From a virus, in the IMG/VR virus record IMGVR_UViG_3300021962_000082, positions 6,475 through 70,474 of that record: a DNA stretch of 64,000 bases; one strand, 5' to 3'. How positions within the stretch are numbered: position 1 is the stretch's first letter; each line of letters starts with the position of its first letter. Positions 3,425 to 61,507 of the stretch are shown in pieces. The translations under genes and the position numbers were made by a program. Below the pieces are notes generated by a model, which worked only from the letters and a program-made list of their open reading frames with translations, did not search any database and was not told the DNA's origin.

Positions 3425-4333
3425 TTAAACGTAAATTCGCATGTGAGACCATGCTGCACCCGAAGCAATTTCTTCTTGATTCCAATGAGCCATGGCAATG
3501 CGTTCTATCCAGTCTTGCCTTTCGGGCATAGTAGGATGCTCTATTTGACTTAGATCCGTATTGGCTACGGCTGCTGCTTGGCTTTTTTCGGAGTCAGTGA
3601 CAAAAACTGGATATCCTTCTATAGCAGCAGCCACAGTGGGACTGGAATTGTGGTTGACTACTGCCCAACAATTTTTTAAATCATCTAATAGTGTAGAATT
3701 GGGCGATGATATTTTAACACCAAGAGTGTGGGCCAGTTGTTTTATGTGTTGTCTTGCTGTTCGATCTCCAGGATGGGGTCGAAGCAGTATAGGGCGGTTG
3801 CTGTATTGCCGTATTCCTCGAACAGTTTGTTCTGCCCAATCGCGTATGTCATACGTTCCCATACTCCACCCACCATTGCGCTGCAAGCACAGTAATATGT
3901 GATTGCCAGTGGAGCGCCAGTCTTTTAAACTTATACCAGTATTCCGGCTGATTGACGCCCAACGAGCAGGATCCGGATTGTTCCAAAAATATACGCCAGT
4001 GCTAGGAAACACACCATCAAAACTGTATCGTGAATAGTCGTTTTTGTTCCAATAGTTAAACAAGTTGCTGTCCACAACCAATAGACGATTGCCGTTCTTT
4101 TTTTGAAAATCATGTGCTGCTTTTCTAAACAAGTTATGCCGCCCTTGCTTGCCAGTGGGATGTGGCCAACCTTGTATAAACGCCACATCAGCGGGCACCA
4201 AATTTGATTGATCACTTACATATCCATCGTCGCCTGCTGCTGTCACTCCGCGAACAAATTTTACCAGCAGGTCCAATTTGTGCTGGCTTTTACTACTAGG
4301 TGGCACCGATGCAAGATAAGCTACAAATTTCAT
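3425..4333 (-). CDS. glycosyltransferase-like (capsule-synthesis-like) protein, paralog 2
   Basis: LRPHPGD, CWAVVNHNSS, IEGYPVF; start MKFVAY overlaps upstream stop (ATGA). Confidence 0.6.
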   Translation of the reverse strand: MKFVAYLASVPPSSKSQHKLDLLVKFVRGVTAAGDDGYVSDQSNLVPADVAFIQGWPHPTGKQGRHNLFRKAAHDFQKKNGNRLLVVDSNLFNYWNKNDYSRYSFDGVFPSTGVYFWNNPDPARWASISRNTGISLKDWRSTGNHILLCLQRNGGWSMGTYDIRDWAEQTVRGIRQYSNRPILLRPHPGDRTARQHIKQLAHTLGVKISSPNSTLLDDLKNCWAVVNHNSSPTVAAAIEGYPVFVTDSEKSQAAAVANTDLSQIEHPTMPERQDWIERIAMAHWNQEEIASGAAWSHMRIYV

Positions 4334-9005: not shown

Positions 9006-10025
9006 GTGAATGCAGTTCGTATTAAAAACGGTGTCTATCGCAACCGCCCCGTTAATAACGTCTGTTTCAATTTAGTAAAAGGCTACGCCACTGGTGCAAA
9101 AGGCAACTATGTGACTGTAGACTCAGCCGGCTACTTTGGACCCGAGTTTGGCACCGTGCGTATTCGCGTTGATGCCATTGATGATTTTGAATATGTAAAT
9201 GCTGAAAATATGACGCAACAGTCCGAGACACCAGCACCTGTCGTTGAAGAAACTGACGAGGCTGCAATCAATCGCATTCGCGAGCGGTTTGATATCCTTA
9301 CCGAAATGACCAAGGCCACGGTGTCTGGTGACATTCGTGCAATGATTGTTTCAGGCCCCCCGGGCGTGGGCAAGTCGTTTGGCGTCGAACAAGAGATTGA
9401 AAAATCCACCTTGTTTGATCGTATGGCAGGTCGCAGGATTCGTGCTGAAGTTGTCAAAGGCTCCGCTACCCCCATTGGACTGTATCAAACGCTGTACAAA
9501 TTCTCAGACCCCAATTGCGTGGTTGTGTTTGACGACTGCGACAGCATTCTGATCGATGATGTGGCGCTTAACCTCCTAAAAGGTGCTCTGGACTCAGGCA
9601 AAAAACGCACCATTTCCTGGCTGAGTGAATCCAGTGCCCTGCGCCGTGAAGGCATACCCGATCGTTTCGAATTCAAGGGCTCGGTGATCTTTATCACCAA
9701 CTTGAAGTTTGACAAGATGAAGTCGCAAAAACTCAAGGACCACTTGGATGCACTACAATCTCGTTGCCACTATTTGGACTTGACTCTGGACACCATGCGC
9801 GACAAAATTCTGCGCATCAAACAAATCGCCAAAGACGGTGTGCTGTTTGCGGACTATGATTTTACCACCGAAATGCACGACGAGATCATTGCGTTTATGG
9901 ACGCCAACCGCAATCGTCTGCGTGAGATGAGCTTGCGTATGGCACTGAAAATTGCTGATCTGCGCAAACTGAGCGATACAAATTGGCGCCGACTTGCCGA
10001 AACCACTTGTATGAAAGTGGCTTGA
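9006..10025 (+). CDS. AAA+ ATPase with N-terminal accessory domain
   Basis: Walker A GPPGVGKS, Walker B VVVFDD, ALQSR arginine finger; CAGGAG SD. Confidence 0.85.
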   Translation: MNAVRIKNGVYRNRPVNNVCFNLVKGYATGAKGNYVTVDSAGYFGPEFGTVRIRVDAIDDFEYVNAENMTQQSETPAPVVEETDEAAINRIRERFDILTEMTKATVSGDIRAMIVSGPPGVGKSFGVEQEIEKSTLFDRMAGRRIRAEVVKGSATPIGLYQTLYKFSDPNCVVVFDDCDSILIDDVALNLLKGALDSGKKRTISWLSESSALRREGIPDRFEFKGSVIFITNLKFDKMKSQKLKDHLDALQSRCHYLDLTLDTMRDKILRIKQIAKDGVLFADYDFTTEMHDEIIAFMDANRNRLREMSLRMALKIADLRKLSDTNWRRLAETTCMKVA

Positions 10026-32172: not shown

Positions 32173-33756
32173 TTGGCTATTGTACAAATTTCGCGCATTA
32201 CCCAGCGTAAAGGGTTACAAGAAGATCTACCCCAATTAGCCGGTGCTGAATTTGGCTGGAGCGTGGATGAGCGCCGACTGTTTATTGGTAATGGCACACT
32301 TGAAGAAGGTGCTCCAGTAATTGGCAATACTGAAATTCTCACTGAATTTTCGGACTTAATGTACCTGGTCCGGGACTATACATACTCGGGCGAAGCAGCC
32401 ACAGGCTATAGCGTACAAACTGGCGTTACACCAGGAACACCAGTTCAGTTGACGCTGCAAAACTGGATGGACCAGTTTGCTACAATTAAAGACTTTGGTG
32501 CAGTCGGCGATGGTGTTACTGACGATACAGATGCTATTAACCGCGCACTTTATCAACTTTACTGTAGAGAAGTTAATCCTGCAATTCGCCGTAGTTTATT
32601 CTTTCCTGCAGGTGTTTATCGTGTATCGGGCACAATTGTTGTTCCTCCTTACGCTACGCTTAAAGGTGAAGGCCCCGAGAATAGTGTTATTGAACTAACA
32701 GCCACTTCCACTGCCACTTGCGTTATGCGCACAGGTGACAGCTTGCAGCAAACTGGTGTTAACATTGGTACCAATGGCGCCACTCCTCCGATTAGTATCA
32801 CTATTGAAAACATGGGATTTAGCAGTTTGAAAATAACTGACATTGTTTGCATCGATCAAGCAAGCGAAATAGTTTTTAATCAGGTAGAATTCAATGGACC
32901 TTTAACAACAGCTGAACTAACAACAGCAGTCGATGATATTGCATCTATTAGATTTAGCAGTACTCCAGCAAACGACACACACCAAATTAAATTTGATAAC
33001 TGCGTATTTTCAGGTTGTACCTACGGTATGAAAACCGACGAACAGGTCCGTGGCATTGATTTTTCAGGATCGCACTTTCAAGTGTTGTACGAAGGTGTTG
33101 TAGTTGAACCAAACCCACTGGGCACAGCGTATGATCCGCGGGGCATAGGCGTACACAGTTGTGATTTTGATTCAATTTATGGCCGCGGCATTGTTTTTGA
33201 AGTTGAACGTAATGCTACTGCGCAAAATACTTTTGGCGATGTGGGCAATCACTTTGGTGGCATTTCGCAACCGTATACTTCTATTATTGATTTTGTTTCT
33301 CCAAATAATATCAGCGTCGGTGACATTTTTGATCGTACTGATCAATTTGCCACTGTACATCAACGAGTCAACGTAAACGGCACAGCCAGTATCGCCTTTA
33401 CTAATGGTCAGCAGTTGGCCATGGGCCCATATGTTCGCGAATCAGGACTAACTGTAACACTCAATAATAATGTAACTTCGCCTGCTACTGCTTTTTCCTA
33501 CAGTGAGTTAGGAATTTGGTCGCTTAACATTGATTATAACATAGCACGGGACACCAACTATCGACTTGGACGGCTGTCTATTGTGTTGGAAAATGGTACT
33601 GGCGCACTAACTTATACTGATGACTACTCGGAAAATGCCCCAACAGGCATTACACTAACTGTTACACAATCGGGCAGTGAAATTTTTGTCAAATACATCA
33701 GCACCAATACTGGTGTTACTGGAACATTAACTTATAGTATAAATCATATTTGGTGA
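32173..33756 (+). CDS. tail/virion protein with pectate-lyase-like beta-helix
   Basis: MAIVQISRI.QRKG, KDFGAVGDGVTDDT.AI, FFPAGVY; TTG start after TAAATA and GAGGA. Confidence 0.8.
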   Translation: MAIVQISRITQRKGLQEDLPQLAGAEFGWSVDERRLFIGNGTLEEGAPVIGNTEILTEFSDLMYLVRDYTYSGEAATGYSVQTGVTPGTPVQLTLQNWMDQFATIKDFGAVGDGVTDDTDAINRALYQLYCREVNPAIRRSLFFPAGVYRVSGTIVVPPYATLKGEGPENSVIELTATSTATCVMRTGDSLQQTGVNIGTNGATPPISITIENMGFSSLKITDIVCIDQASEIVFNQVEFNGPLTTAELTTAVDDIASIRFSSTPANDTHQIKFDNCVFSGCTYGMKTDEQVRGIDFSGSHFQVLYEGVVVEPNPLGTAYDPRGIGVHSCDFDSIYGRGIVFEVERNATAQNTFGDVGNHFGGISQPYTSIIDFVSPNNISVGDIFDRTDQFATVHQRVNVNGTASIAFTNGQQLAMGPYVRESGLTVTLNNNVTSPATAFSYSELGIWSLNIDYNIARDTNYRLGRLSIVLENGTGALTYTDDYSENAPTGITLTVTQSGSEIFVKYISTNTGVTGTLTYSINHIW

Positions 33757-42268: not shown

Positions 42269-42297
42269 TTGACAATAATTTATAAATTTGTTATAAT
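42269..42297 (+). promoter_or_regulatory. consensus sigma70 promoter
   Basis: TTGACA-17 nt-TATAAT with TG extension. Confidence 0.9.
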
Positions 42298-50105: not shown

Positions 50106-50468
50106 ATGAATATTATTATTGACCCAAAAGACTTGAAATCTTATCAAGAAAAATATACGGTGCTGGAATTAGATACTTTTCGCCTACTGCCCGAAAATCG
50201 CGAAGTCAAGGCCTACTGCGTCATTGAAGCAATACCTATTATGGAATTGCAATTAATTGAAAGCAGAAGGAATTTGCACAACGGTTTGTTGGAAAACTAT
50301 CGCAAACGAAATTGGGATTACTGCAATCAAGCACTTGATCATTTGGTTGGCAGCTGGAACAATGAATTAGACTCGTTTTATCAAGACATGCGTAATAGGA
50401 TCGATCGCTATATGGAAAACGATCCCGGTGAGTCCTGGGATGGCGTTATAGAAAAACAAGCAGCATGA
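50106..50468 (+). CDS. hypothetical protein
   Basis: AAGGA SD; Y..RNW..C and WDGVI recall the C-terminal appendage of some class III cyclases. Confidence 0.65.
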   Translation: MNIIIDPKDLKSYQEKYTVLELDTFRLLPENREVKAYCVIEAIPIMELQLIESRRNLHNGLLENYRKRNWDYCNQALDHLVGSWNNELDSFYQDMRNRIDRYMENDPGESWDGVIEKQAA

Positions 50469-51265
50469 ACATAGGAATCGTTGGCTTTGGTTATGTGGGT
50501 TCGGCTGTAGCGGCCAGTTACGCCGACAATCAAGTGTTGGTCTATGATCCTAAATATCCTGAGATATCCAGGTCCCTAAACGATATCAAACGAGAGTGTG
50601 AATTTGTTTTTGTATGTGTGCCAACACCTAGCGGCCCAGGGGGATGTGATACCAGTATGCTGGATAACGTTATTGGTCAGTTGAAAGGCTATACAGGCGT
50701 TGTAATTGTAAAATCAACTGCCCCGCCTCAATGGTATGCAGTAGCCGAAGCGGCAGCCGGATTGAAAATTGCACATGTTCCGGAATTTTTAACGCAAGCA
50801 CGAGCCAAGTATGACTATGTTAATCCCCATAAAATTGTTGTTGGCTGTAAAACAGAATTAAGAAACGAAGTTAAACGAGCATTGATGGCAAGTGCAATCA
50901 ACTTTGATCGCATTGCTAACATTGAGTTTTGTTCTATAGCAGAAGCTAGTTTTTTCAAGTATATGGCCAATAATTTTCTAGCAATGAAAGTTGTAATCAA
51001 CAATGAGTTTGCACAACTGGCACAGGCTATGGGACTGGATTGGGAAACACTGGCTTCAATGGCACGCACTGACACCAGATTGGGCAACACACACTGGGCA
51101 GTACCCGGACCTGACGGCGACTATGGATTTGGTGGTGCTTGCTTTCCCAAGGATACAGAAGCATTACAAGTTATGGCTCAAGACTTAGATGTTGAAACAA
51201 CCATGCTTGACACAGCCGTAAGCACTAACAAAAATCTAAGATTTAGTTTTAACAAACACCATTAA
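50465..51265 (+). CDS. short UDP-glucose/GDP-mannose dehydrogenase family protein
   Basis: GFGYVG, CVPTP, KST, PEFL, GFGGACFPKD; lacks C-terminal domain. Confidence 0.85.
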   Translation: MNIGIVGFGYVGSAVAASYADNQVLVYDPKYPEISRSLNDIKRECEFVFVCVPTPSGPGGCDTSMLDNVIGQLKGYTGVVIVKSTAPPQWYAVAEAAAGLKIAHVPEFLTQARAKYDYVNPHKIVVGCKTELRNEVKRALMASAINFDRIANIEFCSIAEASFFKYMANNFLAMKVVINNEFAQLAQAMGLDWETLASMARTDTRLGNTHWAVPGPDGDYGFGGACFPKDTEALQVMAQDLDVETTMLDTAVSTNKNLRFSFNKHH

Positions 51266-54049: not shown

Positions 54050-54757
54050 TTATATTCCTTCTGGGGCAGGCAAAGATGAATTAGTTGGCTCTGGAGCAGC
54101 ATAAGGACGCACCAACCGTCCTGAGTATTTCTTTGTTAATACTGGAACAATGTCCTCATCTGTTTCAGTAACATTAGAAACGTTCCCGTCGGCATTTACT
54201 GTAAATTTATAGTAATTGCGTGCCTCACCTTCGTCAGTAAAATTCTTTGTTTGCTTGTAAATTATTGAGTAAGGATTAATCTTCTGTACCTCAACAGTAA
54301 CTGGCAAACTGTCGTACATTTTAAAATCTTTTTCGTGATCCTTAAACACTGGTTTTCTATACCAGTGTACAGAAATATAATATTCACCAGGCATCTTGCC
54401 GCGGACGGTTACTACTTCTCTATTGACTTTTATAATCACTTCCTTACCGTCAATCTCCATTTTGTCTTCAAGAACACCACGATCGTCTCGATCTAAGTGT
54501 ATTAGTGGTGAGTCTTTTCTTGTGAATCCCACAACGTTCATATCGGGACCACGAACCCAAATGTCGATATCGTCAGCCGAATCTTCAGGCCACGTTAGTG
54601 CAATAATAAATTCAGCAGGAGTAATAATGTCACCCTTTTTAGCAACGGGGTTGATCATTAAGAACGCAATTAAGAATAAAAATACGAATCCAACAAGAAT
54701 GTTGAATAACAAGTCTGTAAATGCTACAGTACTTTTAAACTTTTGTGGCGAGTCCAT
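54050..54757 (-). CDS. ExbD/TolR/MotB-like single-TM protein with YfaP-like C-terminal domain
   Basis: AFTDLLF TM with conserved Asp; LTW..DIDIWV..P..LDRDD.G..N.E..GEY.I.VH.Y. Confidence 0.65.
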   Translation of the reverse strand: MDSPQKFKSTVAFTDLLFNILVGFVFLFLIAFLMINPVAKKGDIITPAEFIIALTWPEDSADDIDIWVRGPDMNVVGFTRKDSPLIHLDRDDRGVLEDKMEIDGKEVIIKVNREVVTVRGKMPGEYYISVHWYRKPVFKDHEKDFKMYDSLPVTVEVQKINPYSIIYKQTKNFTDEGEARNYYKFTVNADGNVSNVTETDEDIVPVLTKKYSGRLVRPYAAPEPTNSSLPAPEGI

Positions 54758-55256
54758 CAGCGTAATGCTCCAAGTTCACCAGCTGACTCTTTAAGAATAT
54801 ACTTGCAACTAAACCAACCAGTGTGGTATACAATGCTGTACTCATTCCCAACGCCATGCTGGCCAGTGCTGTTTGTAAACTTTGTGTATTGGAAACGTCG
54901 ATGTGACTAAATGCAGTCCCGAGCATTAATAAGAAGCCAGCCACCGTTCCAACCATACCCAATGCTAGGCAAGTTTCTGCCAAATACCATCCAATTTTAG
55001 AATTGTTTTGTATGTCGGACGCAGTGGTTTTTCTGTGCCATAATCCAATTAATACAGATCCTAATACCCACATTAAAACAATAACAAAACTAAGTTTAGT
55101 TTGGTCATGTTGCCAAATTAAACGATGTGCATCAAAATATACTGCAATAGAAATTAAAACTGTTTGAATGCACACCATTAGATACCAAGTCATAAATGCT
55201 TGTTGTGGTGTTACTGTTGTTATTTTTGCTAACCATCGCACTAAATTTTTAATCAT
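54735..55256 (-). CDS. MotA/TolQ/ExbB proton-channel family protein
   Basis: LGMVGTVAG and GMSTALYTTLVGL in the last two TMs. Confidence 0.8.
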   Translation of the reverse strand: MIKNLVRWLAKITTVTPQQAFMTWYLMVCIQTVLISIAVYFDAHRLIWQHDQTKLSFVIVLMWVLGSVLIGLWHRKTTASDIQNNSKIGWYLAETCLALGMVGTVAGFLLMLGTAFSHIDVSNTQSLQTALASMALGMSTALYTTLVGLVASIFLKSQLVNLEHYADGLATKV

Positions 55257-55834: not shown

Positions 55835-56575
55835 TTACATGCTGGCTAGCTTTAATTTATGCACATAGTTGTCCATAAAGTGATCATAGACGCTGCTAAA
55901 GTACTGTCTTTTTTCTAGTGCACGTTTTCTTGCAAGAATCTGATCCCATAACAATCTCCATCCAGCAGAATGGCGGGCGTTTCCGTGGTAATCTAAGTAC
56001 AGTATTGTACCATGATGACGGAATTTCATAATATAAAGTGGGACTCTGGTAACAGCATCACAGCAATTGATAACTCGTGTGTGGGGTACTTTTAATGCCG
56101 AAACAAAGGCTTTAGTGCCAACTCTTGGAGAGCCAAATGTAACTAATGCGTTAACATTAATTAAGCCGCGAAACGACAGTCTAGAAGCCATAATGGTTGC
56201 CATTGCAGCACCAAGGCTGTGTCCTGTTATTACTAGTGGTAAATTATTTCCGTCTTTGTTTAAGTTAAGTAATATGTCATCCCATAATTTATTAACTTCT
56301 TTTCGAAAGCCAACATGTACATGGGAACCGTTTTCTTCTTTGTTTTTACCCGAAGTTAAATCAGCAAGTATGTCGCTTTTTTGTTTAACTTCAGTACCGC
56401 GAAACGACAGTACTCGTTCTTTTCCGTTAGTTAACAAATATGCTTGGGCGCCCTTTTTGTCAAAAAAGTTAAGAATAGAATAACCGTATTCTTTAAACGC
56501 CCCTGTTGCTTTGTCTGGATTAAGGTAAGTGTCCCTGGCTATCTTAGCATACGGTAGTATTTCTTTTGGTGTCAT
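55835..56575 (-). CDS. class 3 lipase
   Basis: SFRGT, VH.GF, ITGHSLGAAMA, TFGSPRVG, D.V.RVP, terminal DH. Confidence 0.92.
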   Translation of the reverse strand: MTPKEILPYAKIARDTYLNPDKATGAFKEYGYSILNFFDKKGAQAYLLTNGKERVLSFRGTEVKQKSDILADLTSGKNKEENGSHVHVGFRKEVNKLWDDILLNLNKDGNNLPLVITGHSLGAAMATIMASRLSFRGLINVNALVTFGSPRVGTKAFVSALKVPHTRVINCCDAVTRVPLYIMKFRHHGTILYLDYHGNARHSAGWRLLWDQILARKRALEKRQYFSSVYDHFMDNYVHKLKLASM

Positions 56576-56650: not shown

Positions 56651-58477
56651 TTAGTCCGGAGCACCACCCTTTTTAATTATATCATTGATCAAGTAGTTAA
56701 CTTGGTCATTAGTTTCCCAAACACCACCTAGCGTAGCAGTATCAATGTCAAATCCAATACTGGTGTTTGTGCCAACTAACCCGTCATCACCAACTTTAAA
56801 CTCAACATCGACAGGATTGCCCTGCAAGTTCTGATCTTTGCCCGAAGTATTGGTTAACAATATTTCAAGTTCATCATCATTTAGTTCCCAAGTTGCACTA
56901 AAGCCTTTTGCAGCCTTAACATCAAGTATATCAAGCAGCGCAAGTGCTTCTTGATCGCCGGTTACTTTGATGTTTAGTGTTACTGATTCACCATCAGCAA
57001 TTTTACCCAACTGCTCTCCGGAACGATCTTGGAACTGTACATTAAACGATATTGGCTCTTCCTCTTCCAATGTGTATGCTTGATCGCTGTTGTTTCCGCC
57101 TTGAGACATAAACCAATTTTCACCAGTTTCCTCTACAGGCCAGGGCGTGTAATCGATGTCAGTATCAGTTAACACTTCCTGATCAGTTTCTACGGTTGTG
57201 TTAGTATTGGGTTGCTCACTGCTATCAACACCATCAACAACAGGATCGCTTCTAACAACACTTGATGTTCCGTCTGGATAGGTTGTTGTAGTTACAGTAA
57301 CTTGATATGTTGTTGTAGTTGTTACTACAAGTTCACCAGTGGTAACATCTCTGGAGTAATCAACAGTTGTAGTTGTAGTTGTGGTGATAATATCACGTTC
57401 ATTTTCTTCATCAGCGGTTGTTGTGGTTTCTGTAGTTGTATTACGACCAGTTTCTGCCCACTCACCATATACTGTTTCCAGCGGTGTTCTTTCAGTTGTG
57501 GTTTCTGTGTAGTACTCGTATGTTACAGTAACAACTGGTTCCGCTGGCCATGGATCATAATCAACGTTGGTATCAGTTGATACTTCTTGATTGGTTTGTT
57601 GCGTTGTAGTTGTTGTTGTTTCTGTGCTAGTCTCAACATTATCAACAACTGGGTCAGCCCTGGATACTGTAACAGTTCCGTCTGGATTGGTTGTTGTTGT
57701 AACTTCTACTTTGTATGTAGTAGTTGTAGTAGTTGTAATTTCTGACGTTGTTACGTCACGTGACAAGTCAACAGTGGTTGTGGTAGTTGTAGTAACTACA
57801 TTTTGCTTATTATCTTCATCAGCAGTAGTTGATGTATCTGTAGTTGTGTTGCGTCCAACTTCTGTCCAAGATCCGTAAGTTGTGTCGCCTGGTACTGTGC
57901 TTGTTGTAACTTCTGTATAGTATTCGTATGTGATAGCGACAACTGGTTCTGCTGGGGGTTCTGCGGGCGGCTCTGTTACTGTTGATGGTTCTTGTTCTGT
58001 CGGTAATGCGTCACCAACTAGCACTTCTGGTCTTCCTGGAGGAGTGAAGTTATAGTTAAAGGACAGTGGATTGACTCCCTCTGCAATGCGTAATAGTTGT
58101 ACAAAACTACTACCACTACCTTCGCCGCCTCCTGCGCCCAAACCAGCAGCAGTTGCATCTAAGTTTTCTAATAAATCACCACTACCGTCTAATGATTGTA
58201 TAACTGAATTAATATCAGCAGAGTTGGCAACTGCTGCTTCTTTTGCTGTGGGTAGCAGTTCTGTGTTGAATACAGAGTTGTCTATTGCTACTGTTTGTCC
58301 GGGCTCTAATGCAAGTGTCTCACCGCTTGCATCAGCAAGAACAATGCTGCCCTGTCCCGTTATGATTTTGTCGGTGTCAGCTATTGCATCACCAACTTTT
58401 AATTCACGAATGCTTCCGTCTTGTGCTTGGGCAAGAACTTTGCCGCTTATTTCTTTTACTGTGGCGATTGTAGCCAT
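56651..58477 (-). CDS. LapA-type retention-module protein (T1SS adhesin-like) with two Thr-rich repeats
   Basis: DG..R.L..GD N-domain, DLLENLDATAAG-Gly linker, SFVQLLRI.E; AAGGAG SD. Confidence 0.8.
   Translation of the reverse strand: MATIATVKEISGKVLAQAQDGSIRELKVGDAIADTDKIITGQGSIVLADASGETLALEPGQTVAIDNSVFNTELLPTAKEAAVANSADINSVIQSLDGSGDLLENLDATAAGLGAGGGEGSGSSFVQLLRIAEGVNPLSFNYNFTPPGRPEVLVGDALPTEQEPSTVTEPPAEPPAEPVVAITYEYYTEVTTSTVPGDTTYGSWTEVGRNTTTDTSTTADEDNKQNVVTTTTTTTVDLSRDVTTSEITTTTTTTYKVEVTTTTNPDGTVTVSRADPVVDNVETSTETTTTTTQQTNQEVSTDTNVDYDPWPAEPVVTVTYEYYTETTTERTPLETVYGEWAETGRNTTTETTTTADEENERDIITTTTTTTVDYSRDVTTGELVVTTTTTYQVTVTTTTYPDGTSSVVRSDPVVDGVDSSEQPNTNTTVETDQEVLTDTDIDYTPWPVEETGENWFMSQGGNNSDQAYTLEEEEPISFNVQFQDRSGEQLGKIADGESVTLNIKVTGDQEALALLDILDVKAAKGFSATWELNDDELEILLTNTSGKDQNLQGNPVDVEFKVGDDGLVGTNTSIGFDIDTATLGGVWETNDQVNYLINDIIKKGGAPD
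57140..57955 (-). repeat. intragenic tandem duplication, 2 x 408 bp (136 aa)
   Basis: Both units run PAEPVV..TYEYYTE..GRNTTT..SRDVTT..PDGT..DPVVD..DY.PW. Confidence 0.9.
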
Positions 58478-58573
58478 GATGGTTTCTCCTTGTTACGTAT
58501 TACTATCAGTTCACAATAAGTGTAGCTGACTGTATAGGTAGTGGAAGAACCTAATCCTCACATCCTCTGTATC

Positions 58574-58601
58574 ATTATAACAATATTTATACGGGTGTCA
58601 A
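58574..58601 (-). promoter_or_regulatory. sigma70 promoter with nested late TATAAATA box
   Basis: Minus strand TTGACA-16 nt-TATAAT; TATAAATA (58584-58591) lies in the spacer. Confidence 0.7.
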
Positions 58602-58640
58602 TGCAATTAAATGCCAATAGTATTGTACAAAAGTACTATT

Positions 58641-58941: not shown

Positions 58942-60261
58942 TTAGCTGTCTCTTTGTGATTTTAAATAGCGGCGGTAATACTTCCTTGCTTTGAGTAGTG
59001 TCTGCATTAGTTGTTCTTTATTTTCTTTCCTCCATTTTCTGCGGTTTTCATCTTCTACTGGATCAATTGTTTGAATTAGTTTATAATAGTTTTTTCGTGC
59101 CTCTAAAAAATTCTTGCTGGTGTTAGTATTTTCTAATTCGTTTAATGCTGTTTTTAAATTATATTTTAGCTCATCAATAATTTGATTCTCAAACATCTCA
59201 CTAAAAAAATGTTGTTTGTTGTGTGCTGTTATTTGATTAATTTTATTCCAGTTATGTTGTTGTTCTTCAGCCGTCCATTGTGTAATCTTTTTCATTTCAA
59301 CAACGATCATTTGCAAGCGTTTAACAGGATCACTTTCAAGATCATATGATTCGTCTATTATACCATCAAATGTTTTAAATCCGTAATCACGCAAGTAAGC
59401 AAGACTACCAGTCGTTGACGCTAATATAAACGGGTGCCCGCAAGCAATAGGTCTGAGTGCTTTTTCTGTAAGTTGTATTCTGCTATCGTCAAAAAGTGTT
59501 TCAAGTACTACTTCAAATTTTGTGTTAGCATAATCACTAATGTCAAAATCTGCACTTGAATTGCTGGATGCTGACGTTGTAGCAAATGTGTCTAGAATAA
59601 TTTTTGGTTTAAATAACACATTCTTAAACACATGGTTGGTATAATGTATATTGTGTTCTGGGTCTGTTGAATTGAAAGAAGTTTTACAATTATTGTGCAA
59701 ATTATTTTGCTGTAGCAATTCAACAAATTTGATTCGGTATTCTCTTGTACCGCCCCACGCACGATTGTATATTAAAAATTCTTGTTGTTCTTTCTCAGGT
59801 TTTATACTAATGTGTTTTGCGTAGCGAAACCAATCTCGTGCAATTAACGCATGCGACCAATAATAAACTGGTATAAATTGATCGTTTTTATATTTTTCAA
59901 CTTCAACTGAATTTTTTTCACTGTGAATAAGCAAACATTTATCGTACATATTTGAATAACCGAGATATCTAAGATTTAACGATTTAAAAATTTTTAATTC
60001 TACATTAAATATTTTTTTGTATTCATTGTTAAATTTTGCATCAACACATTGATAAAAATCATAATTCAATGGTTCTTGATCATAACATATTATTTCCGGA
60101 TCTAAAGTTTTCCCATAAGGCCCAACATCACCTAACATTTTTAAATCTTCAATATTTTTTGATCCATGGGGATAAAATCGATAAATTATTACATGATCAC
60201 CGCGAATTTGTTCAGCAACATCTTGAATATAGTGGTACAATCTATCTAAAGGAACACTCAT
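58942..60261 (-). CDS. AT-rich GT-B-like protein (paralog of 20116-21147)
   Basis: VVLET..LTEK..RPI..GHPF..L..YGFKTF..IIDESYD. Confidence 0.55.
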   Translation of the reverse strand: MSVPLDRLYHYIQDVAEQIRGDHVIIYRFYPHGSKNIEDLKMLGDVGPYGKTLDPEIICYDQEPLNYDFYQCVDAKFNNEYKKIFNVELKIFKSLNLRYLGYSNMYDKCLLIHSEKNSVEVEKYKNDQFIPVYYWSHALIARDWFRYAKHISIKPEKEQQEFLIYNRAWGGTREYRIKFVELLQQNNLHNNCKTSFNSTDPEHNIHYTNHVFKNVLFKPKIILDTFATTSASSNSSADFDISDYANTKFEVVLETLFDDSRIQLTEKALRPIACGHPFILASTTGSLAYLRDYGFKTFDGIIDESYDLESDPVKRLQMIVVEMKKITQWTAEEQQHNWNKINQITAHNKQHFFSEMFENQIIDELKYNLKTALNELENTNTSKNFLEARKNYYKLIQTIDPVEDENRRKWRKENKEQLMQTLLKARKYYRRYLKSQRDS

Positions 60262-60264
60262 AAT

Positions 60265-61507
60265 ATGAAAAATATCGGCTTTATTGGCATTGGAAAATTA
60301 GGGCTGGACTGCGCTGAAGTTATGGCAGAAAAGTTCACAGTCCGGGGTTATGATATTTACCCAAGAACAAGTGAGCTGATAAAAGTTTGCGGCATCGAAG
60401 AAATAGTAAATGAAAGTGAGTGGATTTTTATAGCAGTGCCCACACCCCACGAAGCGGGTTACGATGGATCAACGCCTAGCAGCCATATGACTCCAAAAGA
60501 TTTTGGGCACGGTGCTGTAAAAGATGCTATTGCCAAAATCAATCAATACGCTAAATCTCCCAAAAAGGTAGTCCTAATCAGCACAGTATTACCCGGCACC
60601 ACTCGCAGGCATTTTATCAACTTACTTGATAAACAACACCAGTTTTTATATAACCCTTACTTAATTGCTATGGGCTCAGTTAAATGGGATATGGCCAATC
60701 CAAATGGTTATGATTGGTACCGAAGATGGCAATTGGAATGGTGTTGCTAGTGAGCTTGTAGATATTTACAAGCAAATCATGCAAAATGATCCGCGCTATG
60801 AAATTGGCACATGGGACGAGTGCGAAGCGATTAAGATTTTTTATAACACATTTATCAGCGCCAAAGTTGGACTGGCCAACATGATTCAAGACTTTGCTAT
60901 GCGTATTGGCAACATTAATGTAGATGTTGTTACTAACGCACTGGCGCGTAGTACCATGCGCATCATGGGTCCCAAGTACATGACAGCGGGCATGGGAGAT
61001 GCAGGTGCTTGCCATCCCCGTGACAACATTGCCTTACGATGGCTGGCTGAAGAATATGACATTGGCTATGACTTGTTTGACACTATTATGAGTGCTCGTG
61101 AAATACAAGCAAAAAATCTAGCAGAGTTTTTGATCACGCAAAGCCAACTGGAATTGGATCTGCCAATTGTAATTCACGGCAAAGCCTACAAACCCGATGT
61201 GCCTTACTGTATTGGCAGTTACTCAACGCTGGTAGGACACTATATCAAAGAGCGCGGCATTGATGTAAGGTATGTAGATCCACTAGCCGATGATCCTACA
61301 GATGTTATTGCTTCAGTCGAAGGCGCCGCAGTTTATTTGTGGGCACACAATCGTCGTATTACATATGAATATACCGGCGATCAAAAAAATACCGAGCCTT
61401 ATTGCACAATACACCCTGGAAGTGTTATTGTTGACCCTTGGCGCACATTGCCTACCACACTAGATGGTATTAAAGTTGTACACTACGGAAATACTCGTCA
61501 AAAATAA
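60265..61507 (+). pseudogene. UDP-glucose/GDP-mannose dehydrogenase family gene split by a frameshift near 60703
   Basis: GIGKLG, AVPTP, STVLPGTT in first frame; KIFYN, GACHPRD, KAYKP in the +1 frame. Confidence 0.8.

Follow-up and report, generated by a model that had tools for sequence, protein, structure and literature searches.

Retention-module adhesins are known as giant chromosomal biofilm proteins of Proteobacteria. Here we describe a far smaller protein with such a module, encoded in a 64,000-nucleotide stretch of viral DNA (the window) that spans bases 6475–70474 of the 70,474-bp IMG/VR record IMGVR_UViG_3300021962_000082. Its gene lies on the minus strand, with the ATG at 58477 and the stop codon at 56651–56653, and the product (stored as P0001) is an acidic protein of 608 aa, with a pI of 4.05 and an overall threonine content of 19%. 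An earlier sequence-only reading of the window had presented this open reading frame (ORF, 56651–58477) as a phage-encoded mini-adhesin of the LapA type with an intact LapG cleavage site. The ORF is real, strand and length being confirmed, and both a curated hidden Markov model (HMM) and the fold identify its N-terminus as a true retention module of the LapA type.

Retention module, dialanine motif and protein layout

Residues 3–138 (58064–58471, minus strand) match the NCBIfam model NF033682 (retention_LapA), covering profile positions 2–137 of 145 at E 1.2e-24 and 87.2 bits, where the curated cut-off is 50. A search with a LapA retention-module model was among the checks proposed in the sequence-only reading, which had seen a retention-module layout in the N-terminus; the score and the fold match described next both bear that layout out. 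Pfam and PHROGs gave no match for the N-terminal module. An AlphaFold2 model of P0001, built on a 49-sequence alignment (mean pLDDT 73.6), has a beta-rich plug domain at residues 1–75 (58253–58477, minus strand; pLDDT 92–98 for residues 1–70). Foldseek matches this plug to PDB entry 5ix9 ('cell surface anchoring domain') with TMt 0.85, rmsd 3.6 over 76 columns, 26% identity and probability 1.00, and phmmer against 5ix9_A adds a weak match (E 0.036) across residues 5–112 that reaches the xAAG motif. No hydrophobic core of a signal peptide can be read in the N-terminal sequence, in agreement with the claim that there is no Sec signal.

The LapG-type dialanine motif TAAG occupies residues 109–112 (58142–58153, minus strand; position read in the sequence) and is followed by the glycine run LGAGGGEGSG, both as first described. 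Dialanines occur in P0001 at 81, 110 and 522; A110, A111 and G112 are invariant among 14 relatives and at least 90% conserved among 49. Published passages on LapG substrates give the motif as [T/A/P]AA[G/V] (bioRxiv 10.1101/198937), and have LapA cut at 108–109 and a degenerate AAAIG site left uncut (bioRxiv 10.1101/198937; PMC10990149). The TAAG of P0001 fits the canonical motif.

The glycine run followed by SSFVQLLRIAEGVNPLSF (residues 113–145; 58043–58141, minus strand) is the most conserved stretch of the family: F125, L128 and R130 do not vary among 14 sequences, and the stretch, modelled as disordered, is kept in plug-less relatives (P0030, P0011 and the protein of contig L010, described below). 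It leads into a Pro/Glu-rich linker at residues 146–178 (57944–58042, minus strand), with nine prolines in residues 141–175 and pLDDT below 50 for residues 155–173. The whole of residues 108–173, comprising TAAG, the glycine run, SSFVQLLRIAEGVNPLSF and the Pro/Glu linker, is modelled as disordered; under the threading model of the published passages it would be long enough to span a TolC-like pore.

Two Thr-rich repeats of 136 aa come next, as the sequence-only reading had stated and as self-alignment confirms: residues 175–313 align without gaps to residues 311–449 (period 136 aa, local score 507). Repeat 1 (residues 175–310; 57548–57955, minus strand) has threonine at 47 of its 136 positions and modelled strands at 179–201, 205–219, 226–263 and 277–306 (pLDDT ~80–90). 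Repeat 2 (residues 311–446; 57140–57547, minus strand) has 43 threonines among 136 residues and strands at 315–332, 341–356, 361–399 and 413–443 (pLDDT ~64–74). In the model each repeat is a sheet whose very long strands reach 38 residues, and the repeats would form a ribbon-like stalk. Their number varies in the family, in sequences read by eye: none was seen in P0006, P0010, P0012, P0030 or P0031, there is one in P0004, P0007 and P0008, and P0003 and P0005 have several.

After the repeats comes a cohesin-like beta sandwich at residues 452–591 (56705–57124, minus strand), the beta domain of the earlier description, confidently modelled over residues 453–581 (pLDDT ~87–95). Foldseek pairs it with the cohesin modules 2vn5, 2vn6, 1g1k and 5nrm (TMt 0.46–0.56, probability 1.00), and a structure search of the ESM Atlas gave cohesin clusters at TM 0.63–0.68. 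Residues 448–608 matched no Pfam family, with only DUF4232 appearing at E 0.15 and no match to PF00963 (cohesin); the modelled sandwich resembles cohesin in fold only. Further Foldseek matches, to perforin-2, complement MAC and botulinum HA70, had TM below 0.1 and were discarded as long-hairpin noise. The sandwich is common to P0004, P0030, P0031, P0090, P0045 and P0057; none was found when it was looked for in proteins of 1065–3040 aa.

The protein ends in a free C-terminal tail, NYLINDIIKKGGAPD (residues 592–608; 56654–56704, minus strand; pLDDT below 50), which is a candidate minimal secretion signal. As for the amphipathic end claimed for the protein, the last 17 residues are modelled as disordered and not as a helix, and the end aligns with an internal part of a relative, P0031, ahead of its RTX block.

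Relatives, phage record and purifying selection

An exhaustive phmmer search of 1.84 billion representative sequences gave 616 matches with E<=1e-3, of which 298 reach E<=1e-10 and seven E<=1e-30; among the 150 matches listed, nearly all pair query residues 1–150 with the start of the matched protein. A word-indexed search among proteins of 1065–3040 aa returned 13 bacterial matches, 31–47% identical at the N-terminus. These range from 1094 to 2867 aa, so that P0001, at 608 aa, is indeed far shorter than the bacterial relatives found. Four have a name at NCBI, in each case 'retention module-containing protein', and 9 of the 13 list the RTX family PF00353. A genome scan with alignment A4 gave two bacterial loci only, in a Comamonadaceae metagenome-assembled genome (49%) and in Marisediminitalea (36%), and hence no host clue.

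Among phages, tblastn of P0001 and of the 439-aa protein encoded next to it gave no match in 50,697 phage records. Homologues, for which the sequence-only reading had proposed to survey phage genomes, do lie on the viral contigs L002, L005–L007 and L010. Scans of viral contigs with P0001, alignment A2, P0012 and P0011 as queries found no relative; those with P0005 and P0008 found L005–L007 and L010. P0005 itself, a more distant relative of 946 aa, is present on three IMG/VR contigs in a phage-like context that includes an endolysin, MazG, a NifU-like protein and a peroxiredoxin. The IMG/VR contig L010 encodes a 474-aa relative that lacks the plug and keeps the TAAG-Gly-SFVRLMRI core and a similar tail. 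The family is conserved at its ends and variable in its middle: P0010, P0006, P0012 and the L010 protein all retain the TAAG core together with a similar tail.

In many short relatives (P0006–P0012, P0041 and L010:7182–8606), Gly/Asn/Asp-rich modules replace RTX just before the tail. They are of the types NNGHGNNxDGQDDxNPGQGGGGPN and GNNG[WF]GNGDQDAPGNS, matched no family model, and are possibly a different calcium-binding or secretion-related repeat. An ORF adjoining the relative on L010 (6385–7083, minus strand) is, we presume from its motif, a GIY-YIG-type homing endonuclease.

An orthologue lies on L002, a Tara metagenome contig of 4925 bp. It has 731 aa and three Thr-rich repeats, is 59% identical to P0001 in the best segment, and stands in the same gene order as in the window: a homologue of the 439-aa protein, the retention-module gene and a class 3 lipase. 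Relative to this orthologue the gene is under purifying selection, with 62% identity over the whole protein and a dN/dS of 0.36 over 596 aligned codons. The plug domain is 72% identical (dN/dS 0.24), the segment from the glycine run to NPLSF 84% (dN/dS not calculable), the Pro/Glu linker 44%, the Thr-rich repeats 39–44% (dN/dS ~0.5), the beta sandwich 93% (dN/dS 0.10) and the C-terminal tail 82%, with a dN/dS of 0.04 that is the lowest of any part. Synonymous divergence from L002 is 0.33 in the sandwich and 0.8–1.5 in the rest of the gene, which suggests a recent exchange of the sandwich domain between the window phage and the L002 phage.

CheckV gives the 70-kb record a completeness of 19%, which points to a very large marine phage. 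Judged by one conserved protein, the closest isolates are PA5oct-like Pseudomonas jumbo phages at 42% identity, and the phage has no close cultured relative. A scan of 79 window ORFs placed many of them in phage families for replication and nucleotide metabolism (UvsY-like protein, helicases, primase, DNA polymerase, ribonucleotide reductase, ligase and exonuclease), with other matches to an M15 endolysin and auxiliary genes. Phage families are matched on both flanks of the retention-module gene, which upholds its description as phage-encoded.

The contig being metagenomic and 19% complete, one may ask whether the gene arose by misassembly of two sources, or is a host fragment captured not long ago and now decaying without phage function. 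A 46-kb contig encodes P0002, a protein of 531 aa that is 99% identical to P0001 over residues 1–524, beyond which its end is unrelated; it resembles the product of a frameshift that cuts the beta sandwich short, or else of faulty assembly. The protein cluster of P0001 also occurs on a contig of 118 kb. A chimeric or decaying origin for the gene in the window is nonetheless scarcely credible. It would have to accommodate the phage genes on both flanks, the same gene order on the independent contig L002, relatives in other viral lineages (the P0005 contigs and L010), a GC content of 0.36–0.40 that falls inside the window range of 0.35–0.46, the dN/dS over the 596 codons given above, and closest bacterial N-termini that are only 47–49% identical.

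Promoter and neighbouring genes

A perfect sigma-70 consensus promoter lies at 58574–58601 on the minus strand, ~95 nt 5' of the start codon, with TTGACA, a 16-nt spacer and TATAAT (12/12 matches) and with TG preceding the -10 hexamer. Perfect TTGACA-N16-18-TATAAT sites number two in the 64-kb window, where 0.06 would be expected, and none of 100 shuffles reaches two. The second is at 42269–42297 on the plus strand; both have TGTTATAAT, and the pair may represent a set of strong promoters that the phage uses early. At the equivalent place in the orthologous L002 locus there is TTTACA-17-TATAAT, and over the sequence upstream of the gene the window and L002 have an identity of 85% per column. 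The perfect consensus argues for early, non-structural expression of the retention-module gene.

The 5' leader (58478–58573, minus strand) ends in a ribosome-binding site, AAGGAG (58486–58491), 8 nt before the ATG. Rfam gave no match for the leader except a chance one to snoR24 at E 3, and the leader has no unusual fold (z 0.18); a c-di-GMP (cyclic di-GMP) riboswitch or other known RNA in this conserved region was accordingly rejected. Just 5' of the retention-module gene, a palindrome TTGTAC-N4-GTACAA is present in three phage loci of two lineages (window ~58620–58640, minus strand; L002 ~812–830; L006 ~9925–9945), and could act as a hairpin for termination or as a regulatory site common to these loci.

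The upstream neighbour (58942–60261, minus strand) encodes the 439-aa protein, which is syntenic with, and 63% identical to, a 5'-open ORF of L002. Pfam, NCBIfam and PHROG assign it no family. In the ESM Atlas it matches Uroviricota clusters at 0.97 and belongs to a large family of ~420-aa phage proteins with no named domain, one structural neighbour cluster being fused to epimerase/dehydratase domains. It may be a glycosyltransferase, on a weak lead to GT10 fucosyltransferases (0.79). Downstream is a class 3 lipase/esterase of 246 aa (55835–56575, minus strand; PF01764 Lipase_3 at 80.4 bits; phrog_21992 esterase/lipase), likewise syntenic and 73% identical to the L002 ORF at 3550–4320.

Downstream of the lipase a 173-aa MotA/TolQ/ExbB-like protein is encoded (54735–55256, minus strand; PF01618 at 33.5 bits, with weak ExbB, TolQ and ZorA NCBIfam matches). 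Lying 3' of it, the gene for a 235-aa protein with one N-terminal hydrophobic helix (54050–54757, minus strand) could supply an ExbD/TolR-like partner, giving a proton-channel pair near a putative envelope-threaded protein. On the other side, a UDP-glucose dehydrogenase is split between overlapping ORFs in different frames (60265–60750 and 60665–61507, both plus strand; phrog_9148 positions 2–164 and 164–357). The split could come from a frameshift or from an error in sequencing, or the gene could be broken. At 50465–51265 there is another, short ORF that resembles UDP-glucose dehydrogenase. None of the small neighbouring ORFs was named by Pfam or NCBIfam at relaxed thresholds.

This neighbourhood bears on the proposal that P0001 is a virion fibre or decoration protein, its ribbons forming a stalk, its sandwich binding a host surface ligand and its N-terminal domain docking on the particle. 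The modelled stalk-plus-head layout speaks for it, such a layout being the typical look of adhesive phage fibres, as does a pectate-lyase-like tail-spike domain in another window ORF (32173–33756). The sugar-nucleotide and possible glycosyltransferase neighbours would also fit, since a Thr-rich protein could, speculatively, be glycosylated by them. A virion role is quite unlikely all the same. No PHROG family is matched at E<=1e-5, and so no structural one; the best TM by query among BFVD viral models is only 0.10–0.16; and the 50,697 phage records hold no tblastn match. The gene has a consensus sigma-70 promoter and non-structural neighbours (lipase, ExbB-like protein, endolysin, dehydrogenases), and a fibre would give no reason for a conserved LapG motif.

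Candidate export route and comparison with known systems

P0001 is best read as a phage-borne, trimmed LapA-type substrate that would be exported by a LapEBC-like system of the host and released under the control of LapG, a reading to which we give an even chance. A retention module and a LapG site have a known purpose only in the pore of an adhesin-type type I secretion system (T1SS), so that export and retention on the infected cell, with the tail as a minimal signal, best account for their conservation across several phage lineages. Pointing in the same direction are the very low dN/dS of the tail, an ancestry of the T1SS type, the early-type consensus promoter and the non-structural neighbours.

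Host RNA polymerase would probably transcribe the gene early from the consensus sigma-70 promoter. The acidic protein would enter a LapB/LapC/LapE-like adhesin secretion system of the host C-terminus first, with the conserved 17-aa tail acting as a minimal signal that replaces a lost RTX block and TIGR03661 domain. Outside the cell, the cohesin-like sandwich and the Thr-rich ribbons would fold into a short stalk with a binding head, while the ~65 disordered residues after TAAG would span the TolC-like pore. The folded N-terminal plug would stay periplasmic, leaving TAAG open to host LapG, and we propose that the surface stay of the protein would in this way follow the c-di-GMP state of the host. 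The phage could benefit if the infected cell sticks to particles or neighbours, if the pore is occupied, or if LapG is titrated. Taken at face value, the sequence suggests that the phage alters the surface of the infected cell. In its fullest form the proposal is that large marine phages carry an RTX-less, mini LapA-type family that is slipped early into host adhesin secretion by a 17-aa minimal signal, and that plants a stalk and head in the LapE-type pore, bringing surface, attachment and pore availability under phage control while remaining releasable through c-di-GMP, LapD and LapG. This fuller version is offered only tentatively.

Several results concerning the C-terminus weigh against export. 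As the sequence-only reading had noted, there is no RTX nonapeptide: GGxGxDxUx has no match in P0001, and PF00353 none at E<=1. Of the T1SS C-terminal target models, whose use had been suggested, TIGR03661 (VC_A0849 subclass T1SS target domain) is not matched by P0001 at E<=1 either, yet it matches two sandwich-bearing metagenomic proteins above its cut-off of 17.6 bits. These are P0031 (490 aa; 29.3 bits), which combines a retention module (63.8 bits), the same sandwich, RTX repeats and TIGR03661, and P0090 (281 aa; 18.6 bits), which has the sandwich, RTX repeats and TIGR03661 and is unmatched by NF033682. The phage stretch WETNDQVNY...IND has its counterpart inside P0031 and P0090, ahead of their RTX block. 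The phage 'tail' may thus in part be the end of the beta domain, and the phage protein looks like such a protein minus its RTX and target region.

Two tests of tail likeness add to these points. An HMM of 32-aa bacterial C-termini, run against whole ORFs, missed the P0001 tail, the best family member scoring 3.9 bits at E 0.79; hhalign places phage and bacterial tails in register, yet with P 0.012 and a probability of 3.6%. Speaking for export are the conserved ends of the family around its variable middle and a tail-anchored test, in which an HMM built from the final 20 residues of 13 T1SS-type relatives was run against 252 tails of 25 aa, 237 from background ORFs and 15 from the family. Family tails took ranks 1, 2, 3, 4, 5, 7, 8 and 10, the last being that of P0001 (2.5 bits), above which stand two of the 237 background tails; P0005, P0007, P0008 and P0095 rank at 72–160, and since the family tails are mutually related the high ranks are not independent. 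This likeness to genuine LapA-type substrates is the sole hint of a secretion signal, and a suggestive one. The LDAVTSIF composition test is non-discriminating, 12 of 76 window ORFs scoring at least as high as P0001. A published rule (PMC8861453), [FLI][VAI] at the last two positions, was dropped as a test after only one of the 13 T1SS-type reference relatives (P0017) was found to conform.

A T1SS-adhesin derivative that lost its export signal with RTX might instead act inside the cell, for example by engaging or jamming LapB/LapC entry or in a new role of the plug and cohesin-like domains, or might reach the periplasm or medium only at lysis. The lack of TIGR03661 and RTX, when relatives with the same sandwich have both, speaks for such a protein, as do the alignment of the phage C-terminus with an internal part of P0031 and the weak tail-likeness statistics. 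We consider it possible but unlikely. Purifying selection maintains the TAAG core and the plug in several phage lineages, which is hard to square with a protein that would never meet a protease in the periplasm or a pore in the outer membrane; within the protein dN/dS is lowest in the tail, and family tails head the tail-anchored ranking.

For export by a LapEBC-like system, the components themselves would have to come from the host. The statement that there are no T1SS or LapD/G genes nearby holds for those looked for: LapG (PF06035), ABC_tran above cut-off and OEP are absent from the 70,474-bp record, HlyD-type proteins and LapD not having been searched directly. Their absence is a point against export, though with the record 19% complete it says little; a Lap system in the host is presumed, and this too counts against export. 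According to published passages, LapB-like transporters do not have the RTX-binding residues of toxin transporters (bioRxiv 10.1101/198937) and retained LapA affects LapEBC activity, so that, as far as these passages go, RTX-less cargo and a pore-occupying effect are conceivable.

The survey of LapG substrates, in its published passages, took only proteins of more than 1000 aa with RTX motifs (bioRxiv 10.1101/198937), limits by which small forms would have been missed. A full-text literature search, with most subscription journals outside its reach, found no report of a phage-encoded retention module. Within the searched literature, a phage form of 608 aa, conserved and with its LapG site intact, would be the first sign of phages tapping this pathway. 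If exported, the protein would be a natural minimal substrate for the study of RTX-free cargo recognition by adhesin-type T1SS, its gene a phage auxiliary gene of a new kind that acts on host attachment, and the protein also a compact surface-display scaffold; if not exported, it still shows phage capture and trimming of host surface-protein modules.

Known systems resemble P0001 in different parts. The Ehrlichia TRP effectors, as described in passages of PMC10225607, have tandem repeats, an acidic pI and a non-cleaved C-terminal signal defined by composition. P0001 shares with them the acidic pI of 4.05, tandem repeats and the absence of a canonical RTX nonapeptide. There is no homology between the two, TRPs are without a retention module, and by the composition criterion the phage tail does not stand out. 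The cellulosome cohesins (2vn5, 1g1k and 5nrm) have a fold similar to that of the sandwich at 10–16% identity, with no dockerin partner known for P0001. P0031 and P0090 carry the same sandwich, matched to P0001 residues 454–601 and 474–600 respectively, and P0031 has the retention module as well; unlike them, P0001 stops 17 residues after the sandwich and has Thr-rich repeats instead of RTX and TIGR03661. At the other end of the protein, the fold of the N-terminal anchoring domain in region I of the Marinomonas primoryensis ice-binding adhesin, an RTX adhesin (5ix9), matches P0001 residues 1–75; that adhesin is a protein of 1.5 MDa (PMC5550230) and P0001 has 608 aa.

The system closest in plan is LapA of Pseudomonas fluorescens, with LapEBC, LapG and LapD. 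P0001 differs from it in size, its 608 aa comparing with the floor of more than 1000 aa in the published passages of the survey of LapA-like proteins (bioRxiv 10.1101/198937), and in having no RTX and no recognisable T1SS target domain, with a Thr-rich beta ribbon as its extender. It differs also in being phage-encoded, in a record without LapG, ABC_tran above cut-off or OEP. In common with LapA, as the latter is described in published passages, P0001 has an N-terminal retention module and a poly-Gly linker, is acidic and has no Sec signal, and the position of the dialanine is almost equal, at 108–109 in LapA and 110–111 in P0001.

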